Shown in pieces: positions 247-40,542 of a DNA stretch of 40,542 nt. Origin of the DNA: a virus. Under the pieces are notes generated by a model. The model saw nothing but the letters and a program-made list of their open reading frames with translations. It was not told the DNA's origin and ran no database searches. Position 1 is the stretch's first letter; every line of letters begins with the position of its first letter. Made by a program: the position numbers and the translations under genes. The stretch lies in the UHGV virus genome UHGV-0192375; one strand, given 5' to 3'.

Positions 247-257
247 AAAAAGAATTT

Positions 258-909: not shown

Positions 910-1032
910 ATGATCGATTTCGCACGCAAAAAAACTGGCTGCCAAGCCGTTCGCTTAAATCTTTTTGAAGTACTGGTTCGTAAGCTTTGCTACTTACTGG
1001 CGCAAAAAGGCAATCCAGAGCTAAAAGCATGA
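910..1032 (+). CDS. Small basic ORF (40 aa), first gene of the early-left operon
   Basis: Strong SD AGGAG 6 nt upstream of the ATG; not in the supplied ORF track because <60 aa; its TGA stop overlaps the ATG of the next ORF (ATGA). Confidence 0.35.
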   Translation: MIDFARKKTGCQAVRLNLFEVLVRKLCYLLAQKGNPELKA

Positions 1033-1211
1033 GCTCGTTCTTTGCCCTGATCGTTACCGTCTGCGCCCTCACCGGGGAATGCTCAGACATCATGCTCGGT
1101 GTATACCAGACCAAATCTGGTTGTGATGCAGCTGCTAAAGAGCAGCACGTTAAAGGAGAGTGTTACCCGTACAAATCGGCTGACGACCAGCGGCCAGCCT
1201 TTAAGTTTTAA
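1029..1211 (+). CDS. Small cysteine-rich protein with N-terminal hydrophobic signal-like segment (60 aa)
   Basis: MSSFFALIVTVCALTG... hydrophobic N-terminus, 5 Cys; translationally coupled (ATGA) to the upstream 40-aa ORF; the competing ORF on the opposite strand (887..1114) is less protein-like. Confidence 0.4.
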   Translation: MSSFFALIVTVCALTGECSDIMLGVYQTKSGCDAAAKEQHVKGECYPYKSADDQRPAFKF

Positions 1212-1228
1212 TCGAGTTTTGACCAATG
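1209..1228 (+). repeat. Copy 1 of conserved 20-bp linker TAATCGAGTTTTGACCAATG (stop codon + 14 nt + ATG)
   Basis: Identical or near-identical sequence at 1732-1750 (+), 38351-38370 (-) and 39903-39922 (-). Confidence 0.8.
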
Positions 1229-1338
1229 GCTGTTACCAGCCTTATGCCAGGTGCACATGGCATCGTGATGGTAATACTGCCATCGCAACCAGACAGGAGA
1301 CGATGACCTGTTCTGGTTAAATTGGAAAAGTTAACTTT

Positions 1339-1367
1339 GCCCGCATCCAGTTGCGGGCCCTTTTTCC
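1339..1367 (+). terminator. Rho-independent terminator/attenuator just upstream of the 98-aa gene
   Basis: GCCCGCA-TCCAGT-TGCGGGC stem followed by CCTTTTTCC; the GGAGG RBS of the next gene follows immediately. Confidence 0.55.
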
Positions 1368-1376
1368 GGAGGGTAT

Positions 1377-1673
1377 ATGTCAGCAAACGATCTGGCACTG
1401 AAATTCAGCACTGCGCCAGCAGAACAGTTAATCGGCGTGTTGCCTGTACTTGAAGTTAAAGAGGCTCTCTACGATGAGGTTTCTGACGATGTGATGAATG
1501 AGGTTTGTACTGAGCACGGGTTTGAAATCGAATTTATCGAGCAGACCTGCAACGCCTTCGCCACAGCAATGAAACTTGCTATTAAGCAACCAGCCAAAGA
1601 AGCTCGCGCCACACTGAAAGCAGCATTAGAAGAGTACCCAGGATACGGGCGAGATCCAGACGTGTACTCTTAA
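1377..1673 (+). CDS. Hypothetical acidic phage early protein (98 aa)
   Basis: GGAGG RBS 5 nt upstream; reasonable codon usage; no recognisable domain. Confidence 0.6.
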   Translation: MSANDLALKFSTAPAEQLIGVLPVLEVKEALYDEVSDDVMNEVCTEHGFEIEFIEQTCNAFATAMKLAIKQPAKEARATLKAALEEYPGYGRDPDVYS

Positions 1674-1731
1674 AGCACAAAACCCGCGCAAGGCGGGTTA
1701 AGTACCCGGTCAGCCGACCAAAGCTTTCCGG

Positions 1732-1750
1732 AATCGAGTTTTGACCAATG
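1732..1750 (+). repeat. Copy 2 of conserved linker (G)AATCGAGTTTTGACCAATG
   Basis: 19/20 identical to copy 1; its ATG opens only a 9-codon ORF (ATGACCACT...). Confidence 0.8.
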
Positions 1751-1813
1751 ACCACTACCCAAGGCGGCAATCATTAGCTGCGGGTATCTTACAACCAAAA
1801 TTAAGGACCCGAT

Positions 1814-4378
1814 ATGGAATTTTTCTATTTTATTAAAGCAACCCAGAAATCAGGCAAAGAGGATGCCGTGATCTGGTTCACCGCTAAATCAGAAGCCCGC
1901 GCCAATTTGCAGTTGGATGTTGAGCTGGAAGATGCAGGCATTGAAACCGGCCGCGGCAAGGATTATGTCAAGCCTGTCCGCACCGATTTTCCGGTGTATA
2001 ACGACCTGCCTGAAGAAAGTGCAGTAGATTACACATGGTGCAAACGCTACGAATTGCAGGACGATGGACGCACCTGGCTGCCGAAGGCAACTGCTGAGTC
2101 TGTTGGAGCCGTGGACAATACTACCGCTCCGGAAACGACCGTTAAAGTTGAAACTATCGACGAGAGTGTGACGCTTGAAAACCGCACTCCAGCGGTACGT
2201 TTTGCCTTCCATCTGACCAGCGACAAATATCAGACGCATATCAGTAAAGAGCAGCAGCTGGCTGCCAGCGAAATATCACTGGATGAAGGCAACACCTATC
2301 TCCAGAATCTGCTACTGGCGAAGAATGACACCCCTGAAGTTGCCGAACTTAGCCTGAACGCTGAGTGGAAACTGATTCAGGCGATTAAGCAGGTATTCGC
2401 GCCAGATGAAGAGCACGAAGTAAAGCTACTTGCTACTTTCATGGCCGACTGGTTGAGAGTAGATGCCGGCGACCGCAATGAGTTAGTGAGAGAGTGGAGG
2501 AGCGGAAAGCTTACTCTGCTCAAATCAGAAAGAACCAGCGACGCCGGGGTTGAAACTGGTCATCATCTCGCAACTCATGATGGTATCCAGATCGGCGAGC
2601 ACGATGATGAAAACACCCGTTATCCAGTGTGCAGAATGCCGTTCCGTAAGCAGCTTCTTGCTCAGTTCACCACCGACGAACTGCGCCACCACGTAACCCG
2701 CGAAGAATACGAAGCTATCAGCGCGCTGGAGATGGACACTGACAACAGCTATGTTCAGAACCTGCTGCTGGCGGCAGAAAACTGCGAGGAAATTAAGGGT
2801 TACGATACCAAAGACCTCTGGCGCTACACCGACGCCATTCGCAAGGTGTTCAGCCAGGAGAAGCGTCACGAACTCGCTTTGGTTCTCCGTTTCACCAGAA
2901 TCTGGGCAGAGACAGATTACATAGATCGTGGCCTGCTGATTAAAGAATGGGGTAAGGGTAATCGGGTGAGCACGATTAATCGAACACCTTCCGGCGCGAA
3001 TGCTGGCGGCGGTAATAAAACCGACCGACTGACACCATTAACTAAAACGGGTCGAGATTACGAATTAGCAATGGGGCTACTGGCGCGTCGGTTTGAGTTT
3101 GATATTTACGCTCCATCTCTTGAAATTGACGTAAAAGCCAATGCCATCATGAACCTCAACTGGCCTGGCGAAGATGATGTTCTGGACGAGTTTCTGGCGA
3201 CATGCAAACTGTTTGACCAAATGCCAGGGGGTATGGATTATTCCCGCGCCTGTAACGTTGCAACAGTAAAAACCACCCCAGAAAATCTCTGGAAAGATCC
3301 GGTTAAACACCTCGAATATCTTAATCGTGTCATGACTGAAACCGATCATGCGCACCCTGATCAAACATTGGTTGATATCGCCTGTGGCCGCTCCTCCTTG
3401 CCTGTACCAATGGCTGATGTGGCGCAACCATCAACAGATGATGTTGATCGCCAGCTTGCTGTCGGTCGTGGGGAGTTCGTCCCAGGCATCAGTGACCGAG
3501 CAGATCCAAAATGGGACAGTGCCCACCGCCAACTGACCGCAACTCACGAAGAAAATTTACAGCGGGTTCGTGAAGAAGGCGCCCTTCAGCGGGCTAACGC
3601 TGTAACTAAAATATCAGCAGAAGAAATTCAGGAAGTGGAGACCACCAGCAATGTGCAGATGGAAGAAACTGGCAATGATGAAACCACGAACGACACTCCG
3701 TTATCAGAGGGCCAGGAAGAAGTTATCGCAGGCGAAAGCTCTACTGAAATTGATAGCAACGCAACTGCCCTAAATAATAATTCCGGTCATCATAATGATG
3801 ATGCGGCTGATATGCTCTTTACGCACCTTATGGTAGATGTTGAAAGCCTGGGCAAAAAGCCCGACGCGCCAATAGTTTCCATCGGAGCGGTATTCTTCGA
3901 CCCAGCATCGGGCCAGACGGGACCTGAGTTTTATAAGGTGATCTCTCTCGAATCGGCTATGGAATGGGGCGGCGTTCCTGATGCCTCTACGATCCTCTTC
4001 TGGTTGAAAGCAACTCCTGAAGCTCGCTCAGAGATTGTTATGGATCATGCCATCCCACTGGATGATGCCCTCCTCCAGTTCAAGGATTTTATCGCCGAGA
4101 ATGCAGCGAACGGCAAGGATTCAGTACAGGTCTGGGGAAATGGATCCAGCTTCGATAACGTCCTGCTTGAAAATTCATACGACCGAACCGGGATCCCTCG
4201 CCCCTGGAAATTCTGGAACAATCGTGACGTAAGAACCATCGTCGAACTGGGTAAAGCTGTGGGTTGTACGCCTCGCTACGAGATCCCTTTTGAAGGAGAA
4301 CCGCATAAGGCTATTTCAGACGCACTTCACCAGGTCAAATACGTGTCAGCAATCTGGCAACGTCTGATTTCAAACTGA
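1814..4378 (+). CDS. Large exonuclease (854 aa): RecE (exodeoxyribonuclease VIII) N-terminal-region homolog with an internal ~95-aa duplication, fused to a C-terminal DnaQ-like DEDDh 3'-5' exonuclease domain
   Basis: The C-terminal 200 aa carry the Exo I (MVDVESLG), Exo II (WGNGSSFDNVLLE) and Exo III (HKAISDALHQ) motifs. The N-terminal region shows RecE-like blocks (DYIDRGLLIKEWGKGNRVSTINRTPSGANAGGGN; DIACGRSS; GRGEFVPGISDRADPKW), recalled from memory and not aligned. Two internal repeats begin TYLQNLLLA and SYVQNLLLA. It occupies the exo/bet slot upstream of xis-int. Confidence 0.8.
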   Translation: MEFFYFIKATQKSGKEDAVIWFTAKSEARANLQLDVELEDAGIETGRGKDYVKPVRTDFPVYNDLPEESAVDYTWCKRYELQDDGRTWLPKATAESVGAVDNTTAPETTVKVETIDESVTLENRTPAVRFAFHLTSDKYQTHISKEQQLAASEISLDEGNTYLQNLLLAKNDTPEVAELSLNAEWKLIQAIKQVFAPDEEHEVKLLATFMADWLRVDAGDRNELVREWRSGKLTLLKSERTSDAGVETGHHLATHDGIQIGEHDDENTRYPVCRMPFRKQLLAQFTTDELRHHVTREEYEAISALEMDTDNSYVQNLLLAAENCEEIKGYDTKDLWRYTDAIRKVFSQEKRHELALVLRFTRIWAETDYIDRGLLIKEWGKGNRVSTINRTPSGANAGGGNKTDRLTPLTKTGRDYELAMGLLARRFEFDIYAPSLEIDVKANAIMNLNWPGEDDVLDEFLATCKLFDQMPGGMDYSRACNVATVKTTPENLWKDPVKHLEYLNRVMTETDHAHPDQTLVDIACGRSSLPVPMADVAQPSTDDVDRQLAVGRGEFVPGISDRADPKWDSAHRQLTATHEENLQRVREEGALQRANAVTKISAEEIQEVETTSNVQMEETGNDETTNDTPLSEGQEEVIAGESSTEIDSNATALNNNSGHHNDDAADMLFTHLMVDVESLGKKPDAPIVSIGAVFFDPASGQTGPEFYKVISLESAMEWGGVPDASTILFWLKATPEARSEIVMDHAIPLDDALLQFKDFIAENAANGKDSVQVWGNGSSFDNVLLENSYDRTGIPRPWKFWNNRDVRTIVELGKAVGCTPRYEIPFEGEPHKAISDALHQVKYVSAIWQRLISN

Positions 4379-4445
4379 TTATCAAAAATCAATATTCGCC
4401 AGCTGCCTCAACTATGATCGCAGCTGGCTGTCGAGAGTGATGGCT

Positions 4446-4709
4446 ATGAGCGAACAATATCTGATACCCCTGGCGGAGTGGAAGTCCGGACGATTCGGAT
4501 TTGAGATCACAAATACCACGCTGGTTAAGTATGGGAAGCTTGGCTATATCAATCCCAAACCTGAAAAAGTCCGTGGGCGATGGTGTGTTGACCGCAGCGC
4601 GATCTACGTCGGGCCAAGTGCTGCCGGGGTAGCTCCCGAAATTCACGAGGACGACGATGAAGCGTTGAAGGAGATCCTAAATCATGTCACCAAGGCCACG
4701 AAAAAATAG
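4446..4709 (+). CDS. xis: Excisionase (Xis)-like DNA-binding protein
   Basis: Small basic protein immediately upstream of int and overlapping it; SD GAGAG 8 nt upstream of the ATG at 4446 (the supplied ORF track starts at a GTG at 4437). Confidence 0.65.
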   Translation: MSEQYLIPLAEWKSGRFGFEITNTTLVKYGKLGYINPKPEKVRGRWCVDRSAIYVGPSAAGVAPEIHEDDDEALKEILNHVTKATKK

Positions 4710-5802
4710 CATATCTATACCCGGGCTTTATGCCCGGTTTGACCGCCGCACGGACAAAACTTATTACCAGTACAAAAATCCTGTCACCGGCAAATTCCAC
4801 GGGCTTGGTACCGACAAAGCCAAAGCGGAGAAAATCGCTGCTACAGCCAACCAGAGAATTGCAGCTGCTGAAGCCGATTACTTCCTTAAACAGATTGATG
4901 AAAAACCGGCAGCCAATAAAACTCGGGGAATTAGCCTTAAAGGCTGGGTCGTCAGGTACGAGAAAGTCCAGCGAACCAGGGTGAGCAATGGGGAGTTATC
5001 GGAAGGACGTTTCAAAGAAAAAATGAGGATGGCAAATTTGCTGGCAGAACGGCTGGGGAATCATCCATTGCGCAGCCTGGAGGTTCGTGATTTTTCCCTT
5101 CTCCTGGAAGAGTGGCTTGATAAAGGCCAAGCGAGTACAGCGCTGAATAATCGCGTGGTGTGGATAGATCTTTACCGTGAAGCGCAACATGCCGGTGAGG
5201 TACCGCCCGGCTGGAATCCCCCTGAGGCGACGCGTAAGCCAATACCAAAGGTTTCCCGCGCACGATTGAGCATTGAGGACTGGAAAGCGATTTTCAGCGT
5301 CGCTCCGGAAGGGCATTATATCCGCAACGCCATGTTGCTCGCATTGGTAGCCGGCCAGCGAAGAGAGGACATAGTCAGGATGAAATTCTCTGATGTGTGG
5401 GATGATCACTTACACGTGATCCAGGGAAAAACAGGGATGCGGCTGGCGTTACCGCTCTCACTTTACAGCGAAGCGGTCGGGATGACTCTCAGGGAAGTAA
5501 TCGCAGGTTGCCGGGACCGAATAGTAAGCCCGTATCTGATTCATAGCCAGCTACAGAAGAAAGGCCAGCCAATGAGCAAAGATAACCTGAGTGATTATTT
5601 TGCTGAAGCCAGGGATAAGGCGGGCATTAAACCACCGGAGGGAAAAACCCCAACAACATTTCACGAACAGCGCTCCCTGTCTGAACGTCTATATCGTGCT
5701 CAGGGGATCGACACGAAAACTCTGCTGGGTCATAAAGTACAGGCAACCACCGATAAATATAATGACACACGCGGGCAGGAATGGATCAAACTGGTCATTT
5801 GA
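4684..5802 (+). CDS. int: Tyrosine recombinase, lambda-family phage integrase
   Basis: C-terminal catalytic region (R...HEQRSLSERLY...LLGH...Y..D.RGQEW) closely resembles lambda Int; N-terminal arm-binding domain present; overlaps xis. Confidence 0.95.
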   Translation: MSPRPRKNSISIPGLYARFDRRTDKTYYQYKNPVTGKFHGLGTDKAKAEKIAATANQRIAAAEADYFLKQIDEKPAANKTRGISLKGWVVRYEKVQRTRVSNGELSEGRFKEKMRMANLLAERLGNHPLRSLEVRDFSLLLEEWLDKGQASTALNNRVVWIDLYREAQHAGEVPPGWNPPEATRKPIPKVSRARLSIEDWKAIFSVAPEGHYIRNAMLLALVAGQRREDIVRMKFSDVWDDHLHVIQGKTGMRLALPLSLYSEAVGMTLREVIAGCRDRIVSPYLIHSQLQKKGQPMSKDNLSDYFAEARDKAGIKPPEGKTPTTFHEQRSLSERLYRAQGIDTKTLLGHKVQATTDKYNDTRGQEWIKLVI

Positions 5803-5888
5803 ATGGCCGTTTTTTCCCGATCACGAGAAAAATTATTGTAAAATGCGCGGCCTTAGTGATGGTCGCTCTGTTCTACATCGGTCATTGG

Positions 5889-5925
5889 TTTTGGTGAAAA
5901 GTTTTGGAGAGATTTTGGAGAAGAG
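5889..5925 (+). repeat. Three tandem direct repeats TTTTGG(A/T)GA(A/G)A about 90-120 bp after int: candidate P'-arm integrase arm-type sites in the att region
   Basis: TTTTGGTGAAAA / TTTTGGAGAGA / TTTTGGAGAAG with 11-13 bp period; position is analogous to lambda P'1-P'3 between the core and int. Confidence 0.35.
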
Positions 5926-6073
5926 AAAAAATTGAATATTTTCAAGGCTCTGAAAACATCACGCCTTCTGAATAAGAAGGTGAGCGAGATCGACAATTAA
6001 TCATTATAAATCAAAACATTAAGCCGCATTTTTTAGCTTAAAACCATTGCTAATAAACGTTTTCCAAAAACTA

Positions 6074-6104
6074 CCAAACTCAAGCACTTACGCTTGAGTT
6101 TTGG
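6074..6104. other. Near-perfect inverted repeat CCAAACTCAAGC-ACTTAC-GCTTGAGTTTTGG in an AT-rich intergenic region (possible bidirectional terminator or att-associated structure)
   Basis: 12/13-bp arms with a 6-nt loop. Confidence 0.4.
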
Positions 6105-6138
6105 AGAACGGTTTTCGTAGATTCTAGCCCTCAAAATG

Positions 6139-6199
6139 AATAACCCCAATAACCCCAAAAGGGTTTGACTCTCCTCTGAGAAGGGGTTATTATAACCCC
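6139..6199 (+). promoter_or_regulatory. hicAB promoter (TTGACT 6165-6170, 17-nt spacer, TATTAT 6188-6193) embedded in AATAACCCC direct repeats (6139-6156) and a 17-bp near-palindrome GGGGTTATTATAACCCC (6183-6199) overlapping the -10
   Basis: Near-consensus sigma70 hexamers with optimal spacing about 30 nt upstream of the RBS; the palindrome is a likely HicB (RHH) operator. Confidence 0.6.
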
Positions 6200-6225
6200 A
6201 TCAAGACAACACAGAGAGCCGGAGG

Positions 6226-6405
6226 ATGGATAGCAGGAATGCAATAGCAATGATAGAAGCCGATGGGTGGTATCTGGTGAGAGTTAAAGGCAGTCATCAC
6301 CAGTTCAAACACCCAACGAAAAAGGGGCTGGTAACGGTAAAGCATCCACAGAAAGACATACCGTTACCAACACTGAAAAGCATCAAAAAACAGGCGGGGC
6401 TCTAA
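6226..6405 (+). CDS. hicA: HicA family mRNA-interferase toxin (59 aa)
   Basis: GGAGG RBS; MDSRNAIAMIEADGWYLVRVKGSHHQFKHP... shows the HicA fold signature (G-S-H-H); absent from the supplied ORF track because <60 aa. Confidence 0.85.
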   Translation: MDSRNAIAMIEADGWYLVRVKGSHHQFKHPTKKGLVTVKHPQKDIPLPTLKSIKKQAGL

Positions 6406-6426
6406 GCCCCCCTACTGGAGGTTTAC

Positions 6427-6837
6427 ATGTTGTACCCTGTTGCTATTGATAAAGGCGATTCATCCTTCGGCGTTCGCGTACCTGATATTCCTGGCTGCTT
6501 CTCTGGCGGTGATGATTATCAGGACGCGATTGAAAGCGTACGTGAAGCGATCGAAGCACATATTGAGTTGCTGGTTGAAGATGGCGAGGCCGTGCCCGAA
6601 GCAACGACCATCGAAAACTGGCTTTCCGATCCTGAATATGCCGGTGTGGTATGGGCCCTGGTTGATGTGGATATAACGCGCCTGATGGGGAAAGCGGAAA
6701 AAATCAATGTTACACTTCCGTCTCTGTTGATCCGTCGTATCGATCAGTTCGTGGCCGCGCATCCAGAATACGGCAGTCGGTCTGGCTTCCTGTCCCGCGT
6801 CGCAGCAGATAAAGTTGTCGGACTACAAAAACGATAA
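6427..6837 (+). CDS. hicB: HicB family antitoxin with C-terminal ribbon-helix-helix DNA-binding domain
   Basis: N-terminal HicB-like fold (MLYPVAIDKGDSSFGVRVPDIPGCFSGGDDYQDAIESVREAIEAHIE) and C-terminal RHH (INVTLPSLLIRRIDQFV); starts 22 nt after hicA. Confidence 0.85.
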   Translation: MLYPVAIDKGDSSFGVRVPDIPGCFSGGDDYQDAIESVREAIEAHIELLVEDGEAVPEATTIENWLSDPEYAGVVWALVDVDITRLMGKAEKINVTLPSLLIRRIDQFVAAHPEYGSRSGFLSRVAADKVVGLQKR

Positions 6838-6860
6838 GCCTCGAAAGAGGCTTTTGATTT
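6837..6860 (+). terminator. Rho-independent terminator after hicB
   Basis: AGCCTC-GAAA-GAGGCT stem followed by TTTGATTT. Confidence 0.7.
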
Positions 6861-6950
6861 GGTGCCAGCGTTACTGATAAGTTAGCATAGAGCAATTACT
6901 ACGTACTGGCGAAAGCGCCGAAATGCGCGCAAATTATAAGGATTTACACA

Positions 6951-7817
6951 ATGATTTATGACTGCTTTCTCTATTACGATGAAGATATGTTGTTAGACAT
7001 TCGTCTACACACTTTGGCTAATGTTGTAGATAAGTTTGTTATTGTTGAATCAAAGTTCACTTTTACGGGTCGCCCAAAACCACTCAATTTCAATATTGAG
7101 AAATTCAAGGCATTTGCCGATAAAATCATTTATGTTGTAAACGACACTGAACCGACGAAATTACCAGGAACAAAATACAGTCCTGATTATGAAGTTGACC
7201 CATGGGAAGTGGAAGCGAACCATCGTAATAGTATTATGCAAGGTCTGGTAGATGCAAAGCCTGACGATATAATAATTGTTTCTGACGTTGATGAAATCTT
7301 CAAACCAGAAGCGATTAAAAAAATAAACCCGCGTCATTTGTGCACTACCATCCATCAAGATTTCTATAACTATCAGTTCAACATGCAAGTGTTCAACAAA
7401 GATGGTTCTCCGCGCAAGTGTACACTTCCAAGAGCAACAACATACAAAAACCTGTTGGATTTTTTTGACGGTGAACCTGAGACCTTCAGGAATGTCAAGC
7501 GTAATCGTTTATTTAAAAAATGGTCGTGGTTCAAATGGAATTGGTTTAAGTTCAATAATAAAGTTATTGATAATGGTGGTTGGCATTTCTCGTGGGTGAT
7601 GACACCTGAACGTATTTCTGAAAAGATGTCTACTATCTCGCACCAAGAATATAATACGCCTGATTTCAATAACCCAGATCACATTTTGAAAGTGTTAGAG
7701 AACGCAGAAGATATCTGGGGGCGAGATAGAAAACTAGTCAAGCAAGAACTTAAAAAGCCCGAATTCCCGGATTATCTAGTCGACAATAAAGAAAAATTTA
7801 AAATGTTTGTCATTTAA
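6951..7817 (+). CDS. Glycosyltransferase family 17 (GnT-III-like) protein, AT-rich moron (288 aa)
   Basis: MIYDCFLYYDEDMLLDIRL...VDKFVIVESKFTFTGRPKPL N-terminus and DVDE motif are typical of bacterial Glyco_transf_17 members; GC content is much lower than the flanks; the stop overlaps convergently with the tail-fibre assembly gene. Confidence 0.7.
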   Translation: MIYDCFLYYDEDMLLDIRLHTLANVVDKFVIVESKFTFTGRPKPLNFNIEKFKAFADKIIYVVNDTEPTKLPGTKYSPDYEVDPWEVEANHRNSIMQGLVDAKPDDIIIVSDVDEIFKPEAIKKINPRHLCTTIHQDFYNYQFNMQVFNKDGSPRKCTLPRATTYKNLLDFFDGEPETFRNVKRNRLFKKWSWFKWNWFKFNNKVIDNGGWHFSWVMTPERISEKMSTISHQEYNTPDFNNPDHILKVLENAEDIWGRDRKLVKQELKKPEFPDYLVDNKEKFKMFVI

Positions 7818-8329
7818 TCTCTCACAGGCTTATCAGGCCATGCTATATCGGGTGCTTTCGTAATATCGACTCTATTTAGAAGCACCCGGTACTTTTTCCA
7901 CTCGAGCAGTAACGCCGCTTCTGCATCGGTAGCCATTCCTAAATCAACGGCATCCTGAAGCGGGGCAATAGCTCTTTCCGCAACCGCCATTAATTCACTT
8001 TTCTTTTGCTCCGCAACGTCGGCATCGCTTGGGCGGATATCAATAAAAACACCCTCCGAAAACTTGAAATTCCCTAACACATTAGCCGGGATGTCAGCTG
8101 GGTTTATCTCATATACATTTCGCCCTTCCTGCATACCCATAAATGAGACATCACTCTCACAGGCAACTACTATTCCATTCTCATCGGTAGCTACCGCACC
8201 TTTCCAAGTGCGCAGAGTTTCATACCAGTCCCTCCCGCTTTCATCCTGAAAATACAGTCCAGTCCTGAGCATGCCTTCAATTTCTGCTTGCTCTTTTTTA
8301 TATATTACCGGATTGATAAACTTATCCAT
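7814..8329 (-). CDS. Tail fibre assembly protein (Tfa; P2 gpG/lambda Tfa-like)
   Basis: Position immediately after the tail-fibre gene; typical Tfa composition and size. Confidence 0.75.
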   Translation of the reverse strand: MDKFINPVIYKKEQAEIEGMLRTGLYFQDESGRDWYETLRTWKGAVATDENGIVVACESDVSFMGMQEGRNVYEINPADIPANVLGNFKFSEGVFIDIRPSDADVAEQKKSELMAVAERAIAPLQDAVDLGMATDAEAALLLEWKKYRVLLNRVDITKAPDIAWPDKPVRD

Positions 8330-30416: not shown

Positions 30417-31025
30417 TCATGAAATTTCTTTCAGAGCATTCCGCGCTGACAAAAAAACCTTTGCCCTGAATATTTCCAGGCACCAGCGCACCCGCTTTCT
30501 GGCTTCCGAATCTGTCAACCACGGTGCCAGATGCTGCAAATCTCTGGTGATGTCCGCTATTTTCTTACGCGTGGTGTAATACTGACGTCCAACGATATAA
30601 ACAGGATCTTTCAAATCAAACGCCAGAAGAATAACGTTCTCCATGAATTTAGCGTCATCACTGCTCATAGCCTGGTCAATTACACTGACCGGGGATTCAG
30701 GCCAGAGTATTGAGCGCGCGCGCCTCATTGCCTGCTCGCCACGGTAACCTTCCTCCCTTGCCTGGTTCAAAGCCGCGGTAAAACGCTCCAGTGCTTTATC
30801 AGACCAATTCTTGCCTCTGAGCACATTCCAGCACGAATGACCACACGGTTTCGCTGGGGCCGTACCGCCGCGAACAAATTCGCCCCATACAGTCAGAAGC
30901 GATTTAATCCACCCGGACTGAATATCATTAAGGAGAATACTTTTACCCAGCCAGCTCTTACGTGGGGCCATTGCTGCTTTACCCAGCGCTTCAATATGAT
31001 TACGGCGTTGACGTGGTGTCATCAT
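30417..31025 (-). CDS. Late-gene antiterminator Q-like protein
   Basis: Position between the nin-like region/DUF968 gene and the lysis cassette; Cys/His cluster; AAGGA RBS. Confidence 0.55.
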   Translation of the reverse strand: MMTPRQRRNHIEALGKAAMAPRKSWLGKSILLNDIQSGWIKSLLTVWGEFVRGGTAPAKPCGHSCWNVLRGKNWSDKALERFTAALNQAREEGYRGEQAMRRARSILWPESPVSVIDQAMSSDDAKFMENVILLAFDLKDPVYIVGRQYYTTRKKIADITRDLQHLAPWLTDSEARKRVRWCLEIFRAKVFLSARNALKEIS

Positions 31026-31034: not shown

Positions 31035-32054
31035 TTACGCCAGAACGCCGAGCGCGTAGGCCCGGTCCAGCACTTTAATAATCATCTCCGGCTGCGAGCC
31101 ATATTTACGCTCGAATGCCCGCCGGTCGTTATGCAGTTCGTTATGATGTTTACGGCAGAGTGGGATCGCGAAAATGTCATGGGCTTTGGTTGCCATGCCA
31201 CCCTGCCCCCATCCAATTAAGTGGTGTGGGTCATCTGACTGCTGCTGGCAGCATTCGCATGGTTGAGTTTTCACCCAATCAAGATATTCGCGACACTCCC
31301 AGCGCAGACGTTTAGGGCGACGCATGAAGGACTGCGGAGGAGCAGGATCCACCAGCACACCCACCAGCGGTTCGGCCATGATGTCAGGTACGTCAACAGC
31401 GGCGACTTTCTCAGCGAGAATGCTGGTGGCCGGTATCCCTGGCGTTATATCACTTTCGCGCCCAATCTTGCTGTCCTCCGGCAGGCGAAGCGCTTCACGG
31501 GCCGCAAATTCGGGAAGTGCTTCAGTAACGCCGGCACGAACTGCCCACCAGCTGAGTTCTGCGAGCGAGATCTCCCTGGCCTTGTCCATGCCAAGAGAAA
31601 TACGGACAGAATCGAGAACAAATGCGATTACATTCCGGCACGCCAGCTCAGCCAGTGCCTCAGTGTGTTGATCACGTAACTCATTGTCGCAGTAGCCGCA
31701 TAGCAGAATCGAGCCGGGTTCATGATGCATTACGGTCATCTCATGATAGTGATAATCGCCATGAGGGTTCTGGCACTTGCCCCCACCGTAGTGGAGCAAC
31801 CAGTAATCAAGCCCACGTATACCGCCCGCAGCACGAATGACATTCTCATTCAGAAAGAAAGTTCTTAGTTGCTCGTTTTCAGCTAACGGTTGCCGTGCAT
31901 CAGGAACGCGGCCTGTCTGGTATCCCGACATGCTTGCAGGCTGACGTTCGATCAAGACTCTTCCGCTCCCAAACAAACTCAGCAGCTCCTTGCCTGGCTT
32001 CAGCAACACAACACCTAATTCACGAACAATCACCGGATGTAACAGAGCGCGCAT
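31035..32054 (-). CDS. DUF968-family prophage protein (YdfU-like) with C-terminal HNH/zinc-finger-like motif
   Basis: C-terminal CECC...HHLIGW...AIPLCRKHHNELH block; sits beside the Q gene as ydfU does in the E. coli Qin prophage. Confidence 0.65.
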   Translation of the reverse strand: MRALLHPVIVRELGVVLLKPGKELLSLFGSGRVLIERQPASMSGYQTGRVPDARQPLAENEQLRTFFLNENVIRAAGGIRGLDYWLLHYGGGKCQNPHGDYHYHEMTVMHHEPGSILLCGYCDNELRDQHTEALAELACRNVIAFVLDSVRISLGMDKAREISLAELSWWAVRAGVTEALPEFAAREALRLPEDSKIGRESDITPGIPATSILAEKVAAVDVPDIMAEPLVGVLVDPAPPQSFMRRPKRLRWECREYLDWVKTQPCECCQQQSDDPHHLIGWGQGGMATKAHDIFAIPLCRKHHNELHNDRRAFERKYGSQPEMIIKVLDRAYALGVLA

Positions 32055-32061: not shown

Positions 32062-32262
32062 TTACCTCCGCCCGCGTGAACGCATGTTTTGCTGTGCTCT
32101 CTGCGATGAGACGAACTGAGGAAGATATGCGCTGACTAACCAGAACCGCGGATCTATATCGAGGCTTTTCTCGACGGTTACGCCATTGGATTCGTAGCGA
32201 GCTACCAGCTCATTAGCTTCTTCCGTTGTCAGTCCGGTGTGGGTGAACCAGCTTTTTTTCAT
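32062..32262 (-). CDS. Hypothetical protein (66 aa)
   Basis: ORF tightly packed in the operon; start overlaps the stop of the upstream gene. Confidence 0.45.
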   Translation of the reverse strand: MKKSWFTHTGLTTEEANELVARYESNGVTVEKSLDIDPRFWLVSAYLPQFVSSQRAQQNMRSRGRR

Positions 32263-32660
32263 TGGATGGCCCCGGATAATTTCAGATATTCAATTGCACG
32301 AGCCCGGGCGCCGGGTTCGTTGTTGAGCAGCTCACGCAGTAACTGAACGGCCATAACCGGTTCTTTACGCCCGTTAATGCGGATCCCGCGAGAGGTTCCT
32401 GGTGCCAGTGTGATAATGCGTTTTCGCTCTAATGCACGGAGGTGGGTCAGCGCTGCGTTAGGTGAAGCAACACCAAGCAGATTCGCCAGTTCCTGACAGG
32501 TTGGAGGGTAGCCATGCGTATTCACAAAATCCACGAGCAGATCCAACACTTCCTGTTGTCTCGGGGTAAGTTGTGTCTCAGGGGATATAGTTAAGCCGGC
32601 GCAGCCTGAAAGCTCGCCAGCAGGAATTGAGTTCAATTTTGTCTTGGTTGTTTGCGCCAT
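32259..32660 (-). CDS. LexA-like protein consisting only of a LexA N-terminal winged-helix DNA-binding domain (133 aa); no S24 peptidase/dimerisation domain and no Ala-Gly cleavage site
   Basis: aa 31-100 LTPRQQEVLDLLVDFVNTHGYPPTCQELANLLGVASPNAALTHLRALERKRIITLAPGTSRGIRI align closely with E. coli LexA 4-70 ([64 protein letters not shown]); GGAGA RBS. Confidence 0.8.
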   Translation of the reverse strand: MAQTTKTKLNSIPAGELSGCAGLTISPETQLTPRQQEVLDLLVDFVNTHGYPPTCQELANLLGVASPNAALTHLRALERKRIITLAPGTSRGIRINGRKEPVMAVQLLRELLNNEPGARARAIEYLKLSGAIQ

Positions 32661-32704
32661 GGTTTTTCTCCAGTGGCGCAGCAGGTGCCGGTTGTTCAGG
32701 CCAG

Positions 32705-32938
32705 CTACGAGAGTATACCAGAGGGCGGAGAAGGACGGTAGCCAGCCTTCTCCAGCATTTTGGTGAAGAGGGACGGAGAGCCAACTATCTCATCTTCTCT
32801 GAGAGGCATGAACGAAAACATGTCCCCTTTGCGATACATCAGGGCGCGGTCGCACCGAGGGAAGTTTTCAAAGTAAGCTATAACCGCCCTGTCCGCACAA
32901 CGAATTAACGCAAAACCGGTATCCGGTAGATCCTCCAT
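32705..32938 (-). CDS. Hypothetical protein (77 aa)
   Basis: ORF between recA and the LexA-like gene. Confidence 0.45.
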   Translation of the reverse strand: MEDLPDTGFALIRCADRAVIAYFENFPRCDRALMYRKGDMFSFMPLREDEIVGSPSLFTKMLEKAGYRPSPPSGILS

Positions 32939-32976: not shown

Positions 32977-34086
32977 TTACTCGTTTTCAAAGGTGTCAGT
33001 CACTTCTAAGGTTTCCTCGACTGAAGCGCTCTGAATTGCGGTTAAATCAGGATCGTTGTTAAGTGCTTTTTCCCGGATCTGCCCCTCAATTTCAGCAGCT
33101 ATATCGGGATGCTCGTTAAGCCAGGTGACGGCGTTATTACGGCCATTACCAAGCTTTTCACCAAGGTAGTCGTACCATGCACCTGTTTTATTTATCAATT
33201 TAAGCTTCACGCCAAGCTCAAGAATTTCATCGGAACGAGAAATCCCTTGACCGAACATGAGACGGTAGGATGCCTGTTTGAATGGTGGTGAAACTTTATT
33301 TTTGACGACTTTTATCGTGGTGTCTTTACCGGTGATCTGGTCACCTTCTTTGATGGTTCGTGATCTGACGTCGAGGCGAACGGAGGCGTAAAATTTAAGG
33401 GCGTTTCCGCCGGTAGTAGTTTCAGGATTACCGAACATGACCCCTATTTTCATGCGTAACTGGTTGATGAAAATAACGATGGTTTTTGTTTTACTGACCT
33501 CTCCCGCAAGTTTGCGCATGGCTTGCCCCATCATTCGCGCCTGAAGTCCCATCTGCGCATCCCCTATTTCACCTTCAAGCTCAGACTTAGGCACCAGGGC
33601 AGCCACGGAATCTACGACAATCAGGCCAACGGCTCCGGAACGAACCAGCGCATCTGTAATTTCAAGTGCCTGTTCGCCGGTGTCAGGCTGGGATATGAGC
33701 AAATTATCAATATCCACACCTAACTGCTGTGCATATCGGGGATCAAGAGCATGCTCAGCATCGATGAAAGCACACTGTCGGCCTTCACGCTGTGCGCTGG
33801 CAATCGCAGAAAGCGCTACCGTAGTTTTACCAGATGACTCTGGGCCGTAAATTTCAGAGATACGCCCAACCGGAAAACCACCACCCAGGGCAATATCCAA
33901 CCCGAGGGAACCAGTTGGAACCATTTCAACATTTAAATGTGAACCGTCACCAAGACGCATAATGGCTCCCTTGCCAAAGGCTTTTTCGATCTGTCCCATT
34001 GCAGCTGTGAGCGCCTTTTCTTTTTCTTCCCTTGTTGATGGTTTTGTTTTGTCGGACAGAACAGGTTTTTTCTTATCAACGGCCAT
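32977..34086 (-). CDS. recA: RecA recombinase paralog encoded by the prophage
   Basis: Full-length collinear similarity to E. coli RecA, including Walker [11 protein letters not shown]1/L2 loops and C-terminal acidic tail; GAGGAG RBS. Confidence 0.95.
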
Positions 34087-34115: not shown

Positions 34116-34150
34116 CTGTATGAATATACATACTGGATATAAAAACAGTA
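34116..34150 (-). promoter_or_regulatory. SOS (LexA) box(es) in the recA promoter: TACTGTTTTTATATCCAGTA (minus strand, 34131-34150) and the adjacent weaker ATGTATATTCATACAG (34116-34131)
   Basis: CTG-N10-CAG core with an AT-rich spacer, 17/20 match to the TACTGTATATATATACAGTA consensus; sits between a TTGATC -35-like hexamer and the RBS, as in the E. coli recA promoter. Confidence 0.7.
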
Positions 34151-34237
34151 CACCCAAAAATAAAAATGATCAACCCGCATAAAGCACTTTTTGCCAAAGC
34201 CAGTTATATGTTTCTCATGGATTTTTTTTCGTACAGA

Positions 34238-34263
34238 CATAAAAAACCCGCCTGTGGCGGGTT
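34238..34263 (-). terminator. Intrinsic terminator downstream of the C5-methyltransferase gene, upstream of the recA promoter
   Basis: Minus strand AACCCGCCACAGGCGGGTT hairpin followed by TTTTTTAT. Confidence 0.65.
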
Positions 34264-34307
34264 CTTAGTAAAGTTGTTTTGAGGATTAAAAACTAACAGC
34301 ATATGCT

Positions 34308-36191
34308 TCACGCAGCGCGTACTTTTGGCATGCATAATTCTGGCAGATTTGCCCTCACCAGCGCCTCAGCGAATGGCGGAGGAACTGCATTTCCACAACG
34401 TGCCACCTGCTTATCCTTTGCGTACTTCACGCCCCGGAAATCCTGGTCGATGATGTACCACTCCGGGAAGCCCTGCGCCCGGTATAGCTCATGCGGTTGC
34501 AGCATGCGCATGCCAATATCAACGATGCGATAAACTACCCCATCCAGCGTCACCAGGCCAGTGCTGTCCGGGCCACAATATTCGCGCAGGAACTCCAGCA
34601 CCTGCTGCGCGCGCTGCTCGTCATACCCGTCTACGGCCAGCATGGTTTTCACCTCTCCCACATGCGTGCCACCAGCGGTAATGGTCGGCATTGGCTGGTC
34701 GGTGCGCTGTCCGTCCCGACAGGTTCCACGCAGCTTCACCAGATGAGAGGTTACCGCGGCATGATGATCGACGGTTGTCACAGAGTGCATCGGTTCGTCC
34801 ATGTCCACGCCAGCGCCCTGGTAATTCCCGCCGTAGTGCTTCGCCAGGAACGCGCTCACAGTGGCGAATTTATTGCCGCCTGCCGTAACGGTACCCAGCG
34901 GGTTATCCAGTTGCAGCACGCGCGGCTCCTGCCCCAGACGTTCGCCATAGCCCATCTGAATGAGCGTGGGCATAACCAGCTGCGATTTACCGCCGCCACC
35001 AGCGGTGATTGTCGCACTTGGTTCATCTGCCCGATGTCCTACGCTGGCGCCGAACTGACGACCAACAAAAGGTGTAAGCGCGGCTTCTACCATGCCCAGT
35101 GCATGCCCGTTGCCGCCCGGACGCTTCGATGTACCTGCGGTGATCGTCGGTACCGGTTCAGTTACTTCCTGCCCGGTAGCACCCGTGCGGAACTTCGTCA
35201 GGTGCGGTACTGCGATTGCGTAGCCGTGTTTTTTTGTGATGGTCTGCAAGGGCTCATTCAGGCTCTGGCCTCTGAAACAGTCATAACCCGAACGGGTGCT
35301 GGTGTGGTTACACTTCACGATGAACGGCGTCGGATTGTCCAGGACGAAACGCTGAATTCCCCGGGCGATTCGCTTAAGCGTGTTTTCTGCCAGCGGCTTT
35401 TTACGGCCAAAAATTGACGGCGCGGCAATTGACCAATCGATGCATTCAGCAGCTGTTCGCCATGGTGCCAGCTTACCAGCCTGAACTGCTGGAGATTTCG
35501 GATCCGCGTGGGTTACTTCCGGCCAGGTCACAGGCACGCCGTCGCAGCGCATCACCATGAAGAACCGCTTCCGGATGGTCGGTGCACCAAAGTCGCAGGC
35601 GCGCAGTTCGCGGTAATCGACTGCATAACCCAGCCCGGCCACCAGCTGCTGCGCCAGCATGCCGTCGGCGGCAATGCCCAGGAACTCGCAGCACTCCTCC
35701 AGCGCCGGATGCCCGGCGGGGATACCTCCGGACAACATGCCGCAGAACGCTTCAAAGGTTTCGCCTGCGCGTTCCGGGTCCGGGCGCTGCCCACCGTCAG
35801 CCGATACGATTAGCGGACCCCACGTTTTGAACTCCTCCACGTTCTCCAGCATCATCACGCGCGGTCGCACCGCCAGCGCCCAACGAATGACGATCCACGC
35901 CAGACCGCGAATCTCTTTCTCCACCGGCTTCGAGCCTTTGGCTTTCGAGAAGTGGCGACAGTCCGGGGAGAACCACGCCAGCCCCACCGGGCGGCCAGCG
36001 GTCGCCAGCTGAGGGTTTACGTCAAACACGGATTCGCAATAGTGCAGCGTATCGGGGTGGTTGGTGGTGTGCATCGCAACGGCGTTCGGGTCGTGGTTGA
36101 TCGCAATATCCACACTGCGCCCGATAGCCATTTCAATGCCTGTACTCGCCCCGCCGCCGCCGGCAAAGTTATCGACAATAATTTCTCTCAC
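34308..36191 (-). CDS. DNA (cytosine-5)-methyltransferase, orphan, with an extended variable region carrying four repeated TITAG(G) target-recognition-like modules (putatively multispecific)
   Basis: Motif I VDNFAGGGGAS, IV SPDCRHFSKAKG, VI MLENVEEF, VIII PTIRKRF, IX/X GNAVPPPF; about 390 aa between VIII and IX containing PVPTITAGT, PSATITAGGG, PLGTVTAGGN, PMPTITAGGT repeats; no adjacent restriction endonuclease. Confidence 0.85.
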   Translation of the reverse strand: MREIIVDNFAGGGGASTGIEMAIGRSVDIAINHDPNAVAMHTTNHPDTLHYCESVFDVNPQLATAGRPVGLAWFSPDCRHFSKAKGSKPVEKEIRGLAWIVIRWALAVRPRVMMLENVEEFKTWGPLIVSADGGQRPDPERAGETFEAFCGMLSGGIPAGHPALEECCEFLGIAADGMLAQQLVAGLGYAVDYRELRACDFGAPTIRKRFFMVMRCDGVPVTWPEVTHADPKSPAVQAGKLAPWRTAAECIDWSIAAPSIFGRKKPLAENTLKRIARGIQRFVLDNPTPFIVKCNHTSTRSGYDCFRGQSLNEPLQTITKKHGYAIAVPHLTKFRTGATGQEVTEPVPTITAGTSKRPGGNGHALGMVEAALTPFVGRQFGASVGHRADEPSATITAGGGGKSQLVMPTLIQMGYGERLGQEPRVLQLDNPLGTVTAGGNKFATVSAFLAKHYGGNYQGAGVDMDEPMHSVTTVDHHAAVTSHLVKLRGTCRDGQRTDQPMPTITAGGTHVGEVKTMLAVDGYDEQRAQQVLEFLREYCGPDSTGLVTLDGVVYRIVDIGMRMLQPHELYRAQGFPEWYIIDQDFRGVKYAKDKQVARCGNAVPPPFAEALVRANLPELCMPKVRAA

Positions 36192-36940
36192 GCGTATTCC
36201 TCCATGGCGGCGGCCAGCGAACGGGCAGCAACGACAATTGACGGTACCGGCAACTTCTCAAGCCACATCCGGTTGATGTGATGTTTCAGGCGACGCTGGT
36301 GGTGTGCCGGGAGATCCCCGGCGTTTTCAATCTGGCTGTATACCATTCCGACTTCGTCAGGCCAGACGGTATCCTGCACGTCCACCAGCAGGAGGTTTTC
36401 CAGCTCGATAATTCGTTTCGTGGCGTACTGCAATTGCGGGTCAAAGTTGTCCTGTGGCTCACCGTCTTTAACGAAGGATATCCAGTGGGTTTTGTCATTT
36501 TTCCCGGTACGCTGACCAATGATTGGTTTTACATCCGTCAGCGCCAGAACCTGGCTAACTGGAATCTGAGTTTCGTTCCATTTGAAAATGAGTACACCGT
36601 GTGGCCGCAATACTCGGAATGCCTCTTTGAAACCGGCGCGCAGGTCAGAACGCCACGTTTTTTTGTTCAATCGCCCATATTTTTTACCCATCCAGGCAGC
36701 TTCACCAACTCGTTCAAGATGAGGAGGGTCGAAAACCACTACGGGGAAGGTGTTATCAGCAAACGGCAGCGCGCGAAAGTCAGCAATGAAATCAGGACTG
36801 ATAACCAGACGGCGGCCATCGCAAAGCTCATGCTCCTCACTGCGAATGTCGGTAAAGACAGCGCGAGAGTCGCATTTGTTTAACCAGAACATGCGGGAAC
36901 CGCAGCACATATCGAGTATTATTTTCTCGGACATGTTCAC
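36188..36940 (-). CDS. DNA N6-adenine (or N4-cytosine) methyltransferase, orphan
   Basis: Motif I ILDMCCGS followed by motif IV VVFDPPH; 250 aa; overlaps the start of the C5-MTase. Confidence 0.8.
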   Translation of the reverse strand: MNMSEKIILDMCCGSRMFWLNKCDSRAVFTDIRSEEHELCDGRRLVISPDFIADFRALPFADNTFPVVVFDPPHLERVGEAAWMGKKYGRLNKKTWRSDLRAGFKEAFRVLRPHGVLIFKWNETQIPVSQVLALTDVKPIIGQRTGKNDKTHWISFVKDGEPQDNFDPQLQYATKRIIELENLLLVDVQDTVWPDEVGMVYSQIENAGDLPAHHQRRLKHHINRMWLEKLPVPSIVVAARSLAAAMEEYA

Positions 36941-39039: not shown

Positions 39040-39883
39040 TGTCGGTACCTCCGGATTGTGGTTTTGTCTGGACCTTTGCGCGATCCAGATGGCGGGCCAA
39101 TTTTTGCTCCCACTGGATTTGATGAAAAACTTTCCCTTCGGCTTGCCAGTAAGCGATGAAACTACTCAGTTCCGCTTCAAAATTTATTCCCGCCTTCAAC
39201 GGCATCCCCCACAAAACCGCCTGACGTTCAAAATCGACTGATGGTTTCCAGGCCTGATGCATCTGGAATTTCCCGAATGATTGCTGTGGTCCAAATCCGA
39301 TACCGGGTTGGTTCGGATAATCTGGAATAGCAGGTTCGACCAGTTCGCTATGTGTGGGGTTTAGATCTTTATGGTTCCTTGGTAGATTCCGTGTCCCGTT
39401 TTTGGGACTGTTTAAAGGGAAAAACGGTACTCTTTGGTTAAAATTCGAACTATTAACAATCCCGATTTTGGTATTGTTATCCTCGTTAACAGTCCCGTTA
39501 ATGGTACTGTTCGCATTAACAGTTCCGTTATCGGGATCATTTCGTTGAACAGTCCCCTTTTTGGTACCGTTTAAACGGTACCGATTTCGGGCTTGTTCTG
39601 CATCGGGGATGCTTTCTTCAACGCCCACCAGCCTGTAAACAGGTATTTGTTTAGTCCTGCCACGCCGTTCCCCGGTGTCCACAACAAGGCCGATTTCCTG
39701 TAGATGCTGCAATCCTGCAAGCACAGTCTTTCTGTCCATCTCAGTAGCCTCTGCAAGCGCAGCGACAGATGGATAAGCGCATAAGTCAGCACCGCACATA
39801 TCAGCCAGCCAGGTTAATATCGCCTTGCTGGAAGATTTTCCGGTTTTAACTTTTTTGGCCCACCGCATTGCATCAATGCTCAT
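38825..39883 (-). CDS. Replication initiator (lambda O-like N-terminal HTH + DnaT-like C-terminal domain) containing the origin iterons
   Basis: [12 protein letters not shown]...[11 protein letters not shown]-terminus typical of phage replication initiators; C-terminal DnaT-like segment; iterons within the coding sequence; GGAGG RBS. Confidence 0.8.
39391..39570. repeat. Origin-like iterons: four direct repeats of TTAACAGTCCCGTT with 29-33 bp spacing, an inverted copy (GGGACTGTT) and a flanking AT-rich stretch inside the O-like gene
   Basis: Copies at about 39453, 39486, 39517 and 39546; they encode the N-rich NGTVN repeats of the initiator; analogous to lambda ori within O. Confidence 0.7.
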
Positions 39884-39902
39884 GAAGCCTCCGGGTTGAA
39901 TT

Positions 39903-39922
39903 CATTGGTCAAAACTCGATTA
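39903..39922 (-). repeat. Copy 3 of conserved linker TAATCGAGTTTTGACCAATG (stop of CII-like gene + 14 nt + ATG of a 10-codon uORF preceding O)
   Basis: Identical to copy 1. Confidence 0.8.
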
Positions 39923-40474
39923 AAAAAATTGCGGCGCTACGGCGCTAATACTCGCCAGTAGTGGTCCCGCCGTCTCAGCTGGTAGCATGTTGAATAAGGC
40001 GATTGCCGCTTCACGTATTTCTTTCTCAAGCTTCTGTAACGGAGCACCGAGAAGTTTCGCCTGGTGTGCCTCGCTGCATTCTTTGATTGCGCTCGCCACC
40101 AATTCGGTTTCTGTCTTTGCCTTACTGAGACCGTGCTTTCGGGCGATCTGAATAGGCATGGCAGCAATGATTGCGCCAGAAAGTTGCATGACGTAAGCGG
40201 TGTATTTATCAGACCCACTTTCGTTTTTCAGGTACCGGAAAAGATTCTGCTTATTAACCGCGATGCCGCGCCCACCACGCTTCGACCACTGCTCAGCCAC
40301 CAGTTGCGCGATCTTTTCCTGAGCCTGTCCTGGTAACGTTGACTCCCACTCCCGAACAGCCTCAAAGATGGTGCGACTGCGTATCGAGTCTCTTCGAGTA
40401 GGAGCAAACTGATTATTTGTTTTCAAAGAAATAAAAGTCTGGGGAATAGAATGTTCATAAGGGATCTGTTGCAT
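39920..40474 (-). CDS. CII-like regulatory protein (position-based; possibly Phage_CP76 family)
   Basis: 184 aa; AAGGAG RBS; located immediately upstream of the O-P replication genes as cII is in lambda. Confidence 0.45.
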   Translation of the reverse strand: MQQIPYEHSIPQTFISLKTNNQFAPTRRDSIRSRTIFEAVREWESTLPGQAQEKIAQLVAEQWSKRGGRGIAVNKQNLFRYLKNESGSDKYTAYVMQLSGAIIAAMPIQIARKHGLSKAKTETELVASAIKECSEAHQAKLLGAPLQKLEKEIREAAIALFNMLPAETAGPLLASISAVAPQFF

Positions 40475-40542
40475 GCCTCACTCCTTATGTGAGTTAGGTG
40501 GAAAAATGCTATCGAGGGTACATTGAGACCCGAGCTCATTAA

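Follow-up and report, generated by a model that had tools for sequence, protein, structure and literature searches.

A Phage LexA DNA-Binding Domain with a Helical Tail in a Gifsy-Type LexA/Antirepressor Operon

Introduction

Many enterobacterial prophages, among them the Gifsy-like prophages of Salmonella, are induced via LexA-controlled antirepressors rather than by repressor cleavage, and the timing and reversibility of this LexA/antirepressor switch are poorly understood. Gifsy prophages have short uncleavable repressors and are induced by small antirepressors, which act in trans between prophages (Lemire et al. 2011, PMC3121763). Their antirepressor operon lies 3' of the replication genes and consists of a terminator, a LexA box, dinI, the antirepressor gene, and irsA (PMC3121763). 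Here we analyze the virus genome UHGV-0192375 (40,542 nucleotides [nt], the whole of which is called the window below), in which an operon of this type carries a gene for a LexA DNA-binding domain (DBD) without the S24 protease domain.

Phage GIL01 encodes gp6, a truncated LexA homolog that activates the late promoter P3, inside which its binding site has been mapped (PMC6182141). The isolated N-terminal fragment of LexA is reported to remain a repressor that binds SOS boxes; cells therefore have to degrade it, and SOS induction requires its removal by ClpXP (PMC10584840). The gene described here is a phage truncated LexA homolog with a distinctive tail, and its place in a Gifsy-type LexA/antirepressor operon is previously undescribed. 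The best explanation, which we hold tentatively and rate at somewhat less than an even chance, is that it is a functional LexA paralog in which a 35-residue helical hairpin takes the place of the self-cleaving and dimerizing S24 domain.

Results

A LexA winged helix followed by a helical tail

The LexA-DBD gene (32259..32660, stop codon included; like all operon features below, on the minus strand) was delineated from the open reading frame (ORF) list, Pfam, PHROG 362, and the ratio of nonsynonymous to synonymous substitution rates (dN/dS). It encodes 133 amino acids (aa) and starts with ATG, with GGAG 7 nt 5' of the start. Pfam LexA_DNA_bind (PF01726) matches residues 29 to 92 (E=6.3e-22; 77.6 bits against a cutoff of 23.7), and residues 30 to 101 match the E. 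coli LexA DBD structures 1lea and 3jso with E values of about 1e-16. An AlphaFold2 model built from 13 family members gives residues 33 to 95 a predicted local distance difference test score (pLDDT) of about 90, and Foldseek places it on DNA-bound E. coli LexA (3jsp_A) with a root mean square deviation (rmsd) of 0.8 Å over 66 residues at 55% identity; structure 8trg is also among the PDB and Foldseek matches. The LexA winged-helix domain that a preliminary description had read from the letters of the window is thus borne out by profile and model alike. The winged helix-turn-helix domain comprises residues 29 to 97 (32370..32576; Pfam, PDB matches, and model) and includes the recognition helix SPNAALTHL (32439-32465). 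It is preceded by an N-terminal extension (residues 1 to 28; 32577..32660) that is little conserved by dN/dS and disordered in the model, with pLDDT < 50 for residues 1 to 26, and that is missing from a subfamily of 104- to 113-aa proteins such as SfV orf42.

The C-terminal tail (residues 98 to 133; 32262..32369) is modeled as two helices, 102 to 112 and 118 to 128, joined by a conserved PGAR turn, with pLDDT of 75 to 90, and alignments show it to be conserved across subfamilies of the LexA-DBD family. Searched alone by sequence against PDB and Pfam, the tail had no matches; the sole non-LexA fold matches from Foldseek, which are weak, are winged helix-turn-helix regulators with two C-terminal helices (YtrA-type GntR and BlaI/MecI). 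The preliminary description had suggested that the short tail might supply a new dimerization surface. A conserved and confidently modeled helical hairpin could serve in this way, and it is the obvious candidate for joining two LexA domains. The start of the tail, KEPVMAVQLL, aligns with residues 85 to 94 of E. coli LexA, GEPLLAQQHI, just past the Ala84-Gly85 cleavage site, a likeness that may be a trace of descent from full-length LexA.

The gene lacks a protease domain and is under selection

No Pfam match to Peptidase_S24 is found in the LexA-DBD protein. The NCBIfam lexA equivalog model (TIGR00498) scores 71.3 against a cutoff of 110.95 and covers model positions 2 to 91 of 203 only, and tblastn with the C-terminal domains of LexA, UmuD, and lambda CI returned only noise in all frames of the window at E<=10. 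The position aligned to the LexA Ala-Gly cleavage site reads Arg-Lys. As there is no S24 fold, Ala-Gly site, or Ser/Lys dyad, all of which the preliminary description had likewise reported missing, autocleavage is impossible. The gene's stop codon shares bases with the start codon of the conserved ORF that follows (ATGA), which leaves no room for a lost S24 domain. The outcome that the preliminary description had named as its own refutation, an S24 domain in a frameshifted or extended frame, did not appear in any frame.

The gene was followed through 83 related loci, 80 from IMG/VR and 3 from other sources. Its ORF is intact in all 83, with lengths of 130 to 136 aa and 53 distinct sequences. 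Overall dN/dS, calculated by the method of Nei and Gojobori, is 0.13 to 0.2, with 0.05 to 0.17 for the DNA-binding domain, 0.1 to 0.3 for the tail, and 0.5 to 0.9 for the N-terminal extension. By this measure, purifying selection acts on both domain and tail and hardly at all on the extension. A frameshifted or degraded full-length lexA is ruled out by the S24-negative frames, the ATGA coupling, and dN/dS well below 1, and the constraint on both domain and tail excludes a pseudogene.

The gene lies behind an SOS box and a gfoA-like gene

The operon promoter is marked by an SOS (LexA) box, TACTGTTTTTATATCCAGTA (box 1, 34131..34150), which was located by consensus and position weight matrix (PWM) and lies over the inferred -10 element. 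It is the sole consensus match with <=3 mismatches in the window, where 0 are expected, and, with 25.5 bits, the top site in the 40.5-kb window for a LexA PWM built from E. coli boxes. A strong SOS box is found <=2.5 kb upstream in 76 of the 83 loci, the other seven being incomplete or carrying insertions, and a canonical box also stands upstream of the cassette in L003, L004, and L005. Insertions of ~2 kb are seen between the SOS box and dinI in L085 and L114 and between the antirepressor gene and the LexA-DBD gene in L054.

Just upstream of the LexA-DBD gene is a 77-aa ORF (32705..32938) that BLASTP identifies as a homolog of GfoA, the Gifsy-1 antirepressor (PHROG 1813). For comparison, locus L011 was recovered with the 5' gfoA primer from Table S1 of Lemire et al. 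2011; an exact-match IMG/VR search with the 3' gfoA primer found nothing. In L011, the SOS box is followed by dinI, a TTG-initiated ORF of 82 aa to which the gfoA primers match, and irsA. The 77-aa ORF has 34% identity over 73 aa with this GfoA-type ORF (E=4e-14, BLASTP). Of the 80 IMG/VR loci, 79 have a GfoA-like gene ahead of the LexA-DBD gene; the other, L052, is without upstream sequence. Judged by this homology, the 77-aa ORF likely encodes a GfoA-family antirepressor and the induction trigger of the phage. Its identification as GftA, the Gifsy-2 antirepressor, was rejected, as there is no similarity and the PHROG is different.

The ORF whose ATG overlaps the LexA-DBD stop codon encodes 66 aa (PHROG 1212; 32062..32262) and follows the LexA-DBD gene in 80 of 80 loci; a homolog follows irsA in L011. 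Farther downstream on the same strand are a DUF968/HNH gene (31035-32054) and a gene for a Q-like antiterminator (30417-31025). Where the flank suffices, the order across loci is dinI, recA, or neither, then the gfoA-like gene, the LexA-DBD gene, orf66, rusA in some, and DUF968, and a match to the Q of the window follows DUF968 in some related loci only. The LexA-DBD gene is therefore the third gene of the operon, or the second where dinI or recA is missing.

The first operon gene of the window phage encodes a RecA paralog (32977..34086), with a TIGR02012 score of 509.7 bits against a cutoff of 325 and E=1e-147 to E. coli RecA chains. A LexA-controlled recA of its own is unusual in itself for a temperate lambdoid phage. 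Among the loci, recA is part of the operon only in the window, L047, and L048, and dinI comes first in 70 of 80. The preliminary description had spoken of the gene's own recA operon: a near-consensus SOS box does precede recA at the operon head, but the linkage is confined to these three loci. As the gene orders read, the recA linkage is incidental, and the Gifsy-type antirepressor operon is the conserved context.

The LexA-DBD gene occupies a variable slot

In the Gifsy phages and in SPN3UB, the exact slot of the LexA-DBD gene is held by the NinB-like irsA. That the LexA-DBD protein might itself be the IrsA of the Gifsy phages was rejected, the irsA homolog being a 200-aa NinB-like protein. 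The two versions share their upstream junction, consisting of a start hairpin and the first codons, Met-Ala, and the gene therefore looks like a cassette exchanged at a module boundary. The RNA hairpin (32654..32679; minimum free energy, -15.6 kcal/mol; z=-2.7) surrounds the Shine-Dalgarno sequence and AUG of the LexA-DBD gene, with the Shine-Dalgarno in the loop of UGCGCCA...UGGCGCA and the AUG in the 3' arm. The same stem recurs in L004 (about 5982-6008), in L005 (5983-6008), and at the irsA start of L011 (about 3058-3086), and it may be a translational control element, a module junction for gene replacement, or both.

Promoter and terminator elements of the operon

By analogy with the Gifsy dinI promoter (PMC3121763), the -35 hexamer of the SOS-controlled promoter is inferred to be TTGATC (34168..34173), which is invariant in the window, L047, and L048 and present in L004; a consensus promoter scan missed it because the -10 is weak. 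Upstream, after a methyltransferase gene, is an intrinsic terminator (34242..34266) formed by the inverted repeat AACCCGCC/GGCGGGTT and a T run. The same arrangement is found in L047, L048, Gifsy-2, and Kp4865-4, and the terminator would insulate the SOS operon from upstream early transcription. No convincing terminator was seen in the window between recA and Q.

A second, imperfect box of the form ATGT-N8-ACAG (ATGTATATTCATACAG; 34116..34131) was recognized in the sequence 17 bp downstream of box 1. It is weak by PWM (11 bits), and ATG(T/G)-N8-ACAG is kept in all three recA-type promoters though the spacer differs. LexA might bind there with low affinity, or the element might be bound by the phage LexA-DBD protein. 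When four diverged loci were compared for other conserved palindromes or operators near the operon, only the SOS box, the terminator, and the ribosome-binding-site hairpin came to light. A second SOS-like site of 16 bits, TACTGTTCGCATTAACAGTT, is found inside the O-like replication gene (39505-39524); it could be a chance occurrence, about 0.3 sites of >=12 bits being expected per shuffled window.

The recognition helix keeps part of the LexA contact set

In E. coli LexA, the contact residues of helix 3 are Ser39, Asn41, Ala42, Glu44, and Glu45 (PMC13416735, citing Knegtel 1995). In the alignment, the LexA-DBD protein keeps Ser39, Asn41, and Ala42 and has Leu for Glu44 and Thr for Glu45, so that the full LexA contact set is not present. 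The statement in the preliminary description that the DNA contacts are mostly conserved accordingly stands for the first three residues and fails for the two glutamates. Within the family, Ser39, Asn41, Ala42, His46, and the SRGI wing are invariant, and positions 44 and 45 are hypervariable, clade by clade (LL, AE, LT, FS, and VT). As Glu44 and Glu45 are replaced and variable, binding to SOS boxes is not assured; given the residues that are kept, it is plausible.

A widespread family of DBD-only LexA proteins

The match to PHROG 362 ("transcriptional repressor") spans the family profile from end to end, residues 29 to 131 being aligned to profile positions 2 to 104 of 106 (E=2.5e-42). There are 228 IMG/VR relatives, and tblastn finds relatives in 64 phage records, including SfV orf42, SfII, SfIV, mEp460, mEp390, phage cdtI, and many Stx2 phages, where they are annotated as "repressor, lexA family" and are sited between dam and rusA. 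A literature search for functional studies of this enteric family found none, only catalog mentions.

Of the 150 best matches in a protein search space of 1.84 billion cluster representatives, 102 are <=175 aa long, some of the short ones possibly being gene fragments. Nineteen of these 150 match through the tail, and 36 have two LexA domains in tandem, seen as two matched stretches. Three such proteins of 160 to 260 aa (P0129, P0123, and P0143) have two tandem LexA DBDs and no S24 domain, and tandem double-DBD proteins of this kind look like single-chain LexA pseudo-dimers. DBD-only relatives thus have either the hairpin tail or tandem DBDs, and those without a tail often have two domains per chain, a pattern that fits a need for two DBDs per operator.

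The combination of a LexA DBD and a tail is thus common, not very unusual. The preliminary description had considered that no characterized phage protein has such an architecture, a view that has to be given up, since GIL01 gp6 is characterized (PMC6182141) and the enteric family is widely annotated.

Genome context of the window

The window begins with a recE-like exonuclease gene (1814-4378, plus strand) and an integrase gene (4684-5802, plus strand), followed on the minus strand by late genes in the order tail, head, terminase, lysis, Q, nin, P, O, and cII. Read from these predicted genes, the arrangement corresponds to a vegetative or circularly permuted phage genome. Neither positions 1-7900 nor 39900-40542 contain host flank, and the immunity region (cIII-N-cI-cro) falls outside the window. 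What these genes establish is a temperate phage and not a prophage, the term used in the preliminary description. Against phages and E. coli genomes, megablast gave short matches only, and a scan of genome contigs brought up only distant LexA genes; the nearest named relatives are from Enterobacter. The candidate repressor of related locus L005 is a helix-turn-helix protein of 128 aa that has no S24 domain, as would be expected if induction depends on an antirepressor.

Just upstream of the terminator are two adjacent DNA methyltransferase genes (34308-36940, minus strand), encoding a 627-aa protein of the C5-cytosine type and a 250-aa protein. PHROG 29443 matches the N terminus of the first methylase and also part of the LexA-DBD protein, which hints that fused or mis-clustered versions exist.

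Discussion

As the SOS box overlaps the promoter, the LexA-DBD protein should be made only after host LexA has been cleaved, together with the antirepressor. We propose that this RecA*-insensitive protein then re-occupies LexA-type boxes as a delayed negative feedback, a proposal that we consider a serious possibility, if one still short of probable. In a lysogen, host LexA would keep the operon shut. DNA damage would bring about LexA cleavage, and antirepressor and LexA-DBD protein would be made together, the former inactivating the phage repressor. The latter, proof against RecA* and without the ClpX degron that LexA cleavage exposes, would dimerize via its tail and re-occupy LexA-type boxes, that of its own promoter first (box 1 and the adjacent ATGT box). 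The outcome would be a delayed feedback that limits synthesis of the antirepressor and of RecA/DinI, and other SOS promoters, host genes, and the operons of co-resident prophages might perhaps be re-silenced while damage persists. It is possible, though we regard it as doubtful, that with this RecA*-proof LexA surrogate the phage re-closes its own box and perhaps those of host or rivals, giving a self-limiting pulse of induction and a phage-set end to SOS, with residues 44 and 45 tuning the choice of boxes. With the partners DinI or RecA working in the same signaling pathway, the operon looks like a module for processing the SOS signal, with the antirepressor at its center, and an uncleavable LexA-type binder co-transcribed with that antirepressor points the same way.

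Several observations weigh against the proposed feedback. All clades stand behind the same canonical SOS box despite their differences at positions 44 and 45, and such variation behind one box fits a relaxed or diverged specificity better than conserved reading of CTGT. Duplicates of lexA are reported to gain new motifs (PMC8565304), and the sole characterized truncated LexA, gp6, is an activator with its own P3 site (PMC6182141). Members of the SfV/Stx subfamily have neither an SOS box nor an antirepressor gene in front of them. The slot carries a ninB-like gene in the Gifsy phages and SPN3UB, which makes the LexA-DBD gene evolutionarily dispensable, and in Citrobacter phage Chris1 (L008, 2330-2419) only a 29-codon annotated ORF, which may be a deletion remnant, lies between the GfoA-like gene and orf66. 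In Gifsy, moreover, deletion of dinI or irsA left induction unchanged (PMC3121763).

The main alternative, and a serious one, is a regulator of diverged specificity, with a LexA fold and another operator, that represses or activates a phage promoter with the SOS-delayed timing of gp6. The clade-specific substitutions at positions 44 and 45 speak for it, as do the gp6 precedent (PMC6182141) and the tendency of lexA duplicates toward new motifs (PMC8565304). DUF968 and Q also follow the gene closely on the same strand, and the conserved ATGT-N8-ACAG second box of the recA-type promoters could be an altered site. No conserved alternative palindrome was found around the operon, however, and Q already provides late-gene control in these phages. 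With Ser39, Asn41, Ala42, His46, and the wing invariant, at least the contacts to the TGT core could be retained. We see this alternative as possible and rather doubtful.

An uncleavable LexA surrogate could also serve in competition between phages, keeping the Gifsy-like antirepressor operons of co-resident or superinfecting phages, along with colicin and tailocin genes, shut. This has the same biochemical premise as the feedback that we propose, and it suits a gene in a variable accessory slot that is often replaced; Gifsy antirepressors act in trans (PMC3121763), and regulator-based prophage interference has been reported (bioRxiv 10.1101/2025.01.01.630987). The variation at positions 44 and 45, however, makes specificity for SOS boxes uncertain, and expression only after LexA cleavage, at the same moment as competitors fire, would give little head start. 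We think competition an unlikely function.

Far less probable is a protein-protein decoy, in which the LexA-like tail binds RecA* or LexA and the protein does not act on DNA. MAFFT and the lexA hidden Markov model both align the start of the tail with LexA residues 85 to 94, and the operon partners RecA and DinI act on RecA filaments. In the model, though, this segment is helical and not the LexA strand-loop, the similarity extends over 9 residues only, and the strongest constraint falls on the DNA-binding domain. LexA contacts RecA* mainly via its C-terminal domain, which the LexA-DBD protein lacks.

That the gene is a decaying remnant of full-length lexA or a functionless chance ORF, as its loss or replacement in related phages and the 29-codon ORF of Chris1 might suggest, is scarcely credible beside an ORF intact in every locus, with a good ribosome-binding site, coupled translation of the downstream gene, dN/dS far under 1 in DBD and tail, no S24 trace, and a whole-length match to PHROG 362.

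Relatives of the operon occur in Klebsiella phage Kp4865-4 and in Enterobacter genomes. If the LexA-DBD protein re-closes SOS boxes, prophage induction by DNA-damaging antibiotics, cross-talk between co-resident prophages, and SOS mutagenesis in lysogens would all be affected. If it has acquired a new specificity, the family would offer a natural series of LexA-domain variants at two contact residues, useful for the study of LexA motif evolution.

The known proteins and systems nearest to this one differ from it in separate ways. YtrA-type GntR regulators and BlaI/MecI share the plan of a winged helix with a short helical module, an analogy only, resting on weak Foldseek matches; the sequences are unrelated, and superposition of the whole chain gives an rmsd above 11 Å. 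The 104- to 113-aa proteins of PHROG 362, SfV orf42, and the Stx phages have the same DBD and helical tail, with 42 to 47% identity, and likewise belong to the lambdoid nin region, but they lack the N-terminal extension, keep Glu45, and lie between dam and rusA. The LexA N-terminal cleavage fragment (residues 1 to 84) is the identical domain alone and reportedly retains SOS-box binding and repression (PMC10584840). That fragment is short-lived because cleavage exposes a ClpX degron, whereas the phage protein is translated in its DBD-only form and has another C terminus, a structured tail, and changes at residues 44 and 45.

GIL01 gp6 is, like the LexA-DBD protein, encoded by a temperate phage and consists of a LexA DBD without S24; it is produced once SOS has been induced and acts at phage promoters beside host LexA (PMC6182141). 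The two have 32% identity over 50 aa (E=7e-8). In contrast, gp6 is only 66 aa long, without the C-terminal hairpin or the N-terminal extension, and comes from a Gram-positive tectivirus (of Bacillus thuringiensis), where it is not in an antirepressor operon.

Gifsy-1, -2, and -3 of Salmonella share with the window the terminator, the LexA-box promoter, the small antirepressor, which is homologous to GfoA, the orf66-like gene, the nuclease gene, and Q, all downstream of the replication genes, as well as the ribosome-binding-site and start hairpin of the gene that follows the antirepressor. The paper describing them makes no mention of a LexA-DBD variant (PMC3121763). It is in two genes of this otherwise shared arrangement that the window departs from the Gifsy phages, a full recA standing in place of dinI and the LexA-DBD gene in the slot of the ninB-like, 200-aa irsA.

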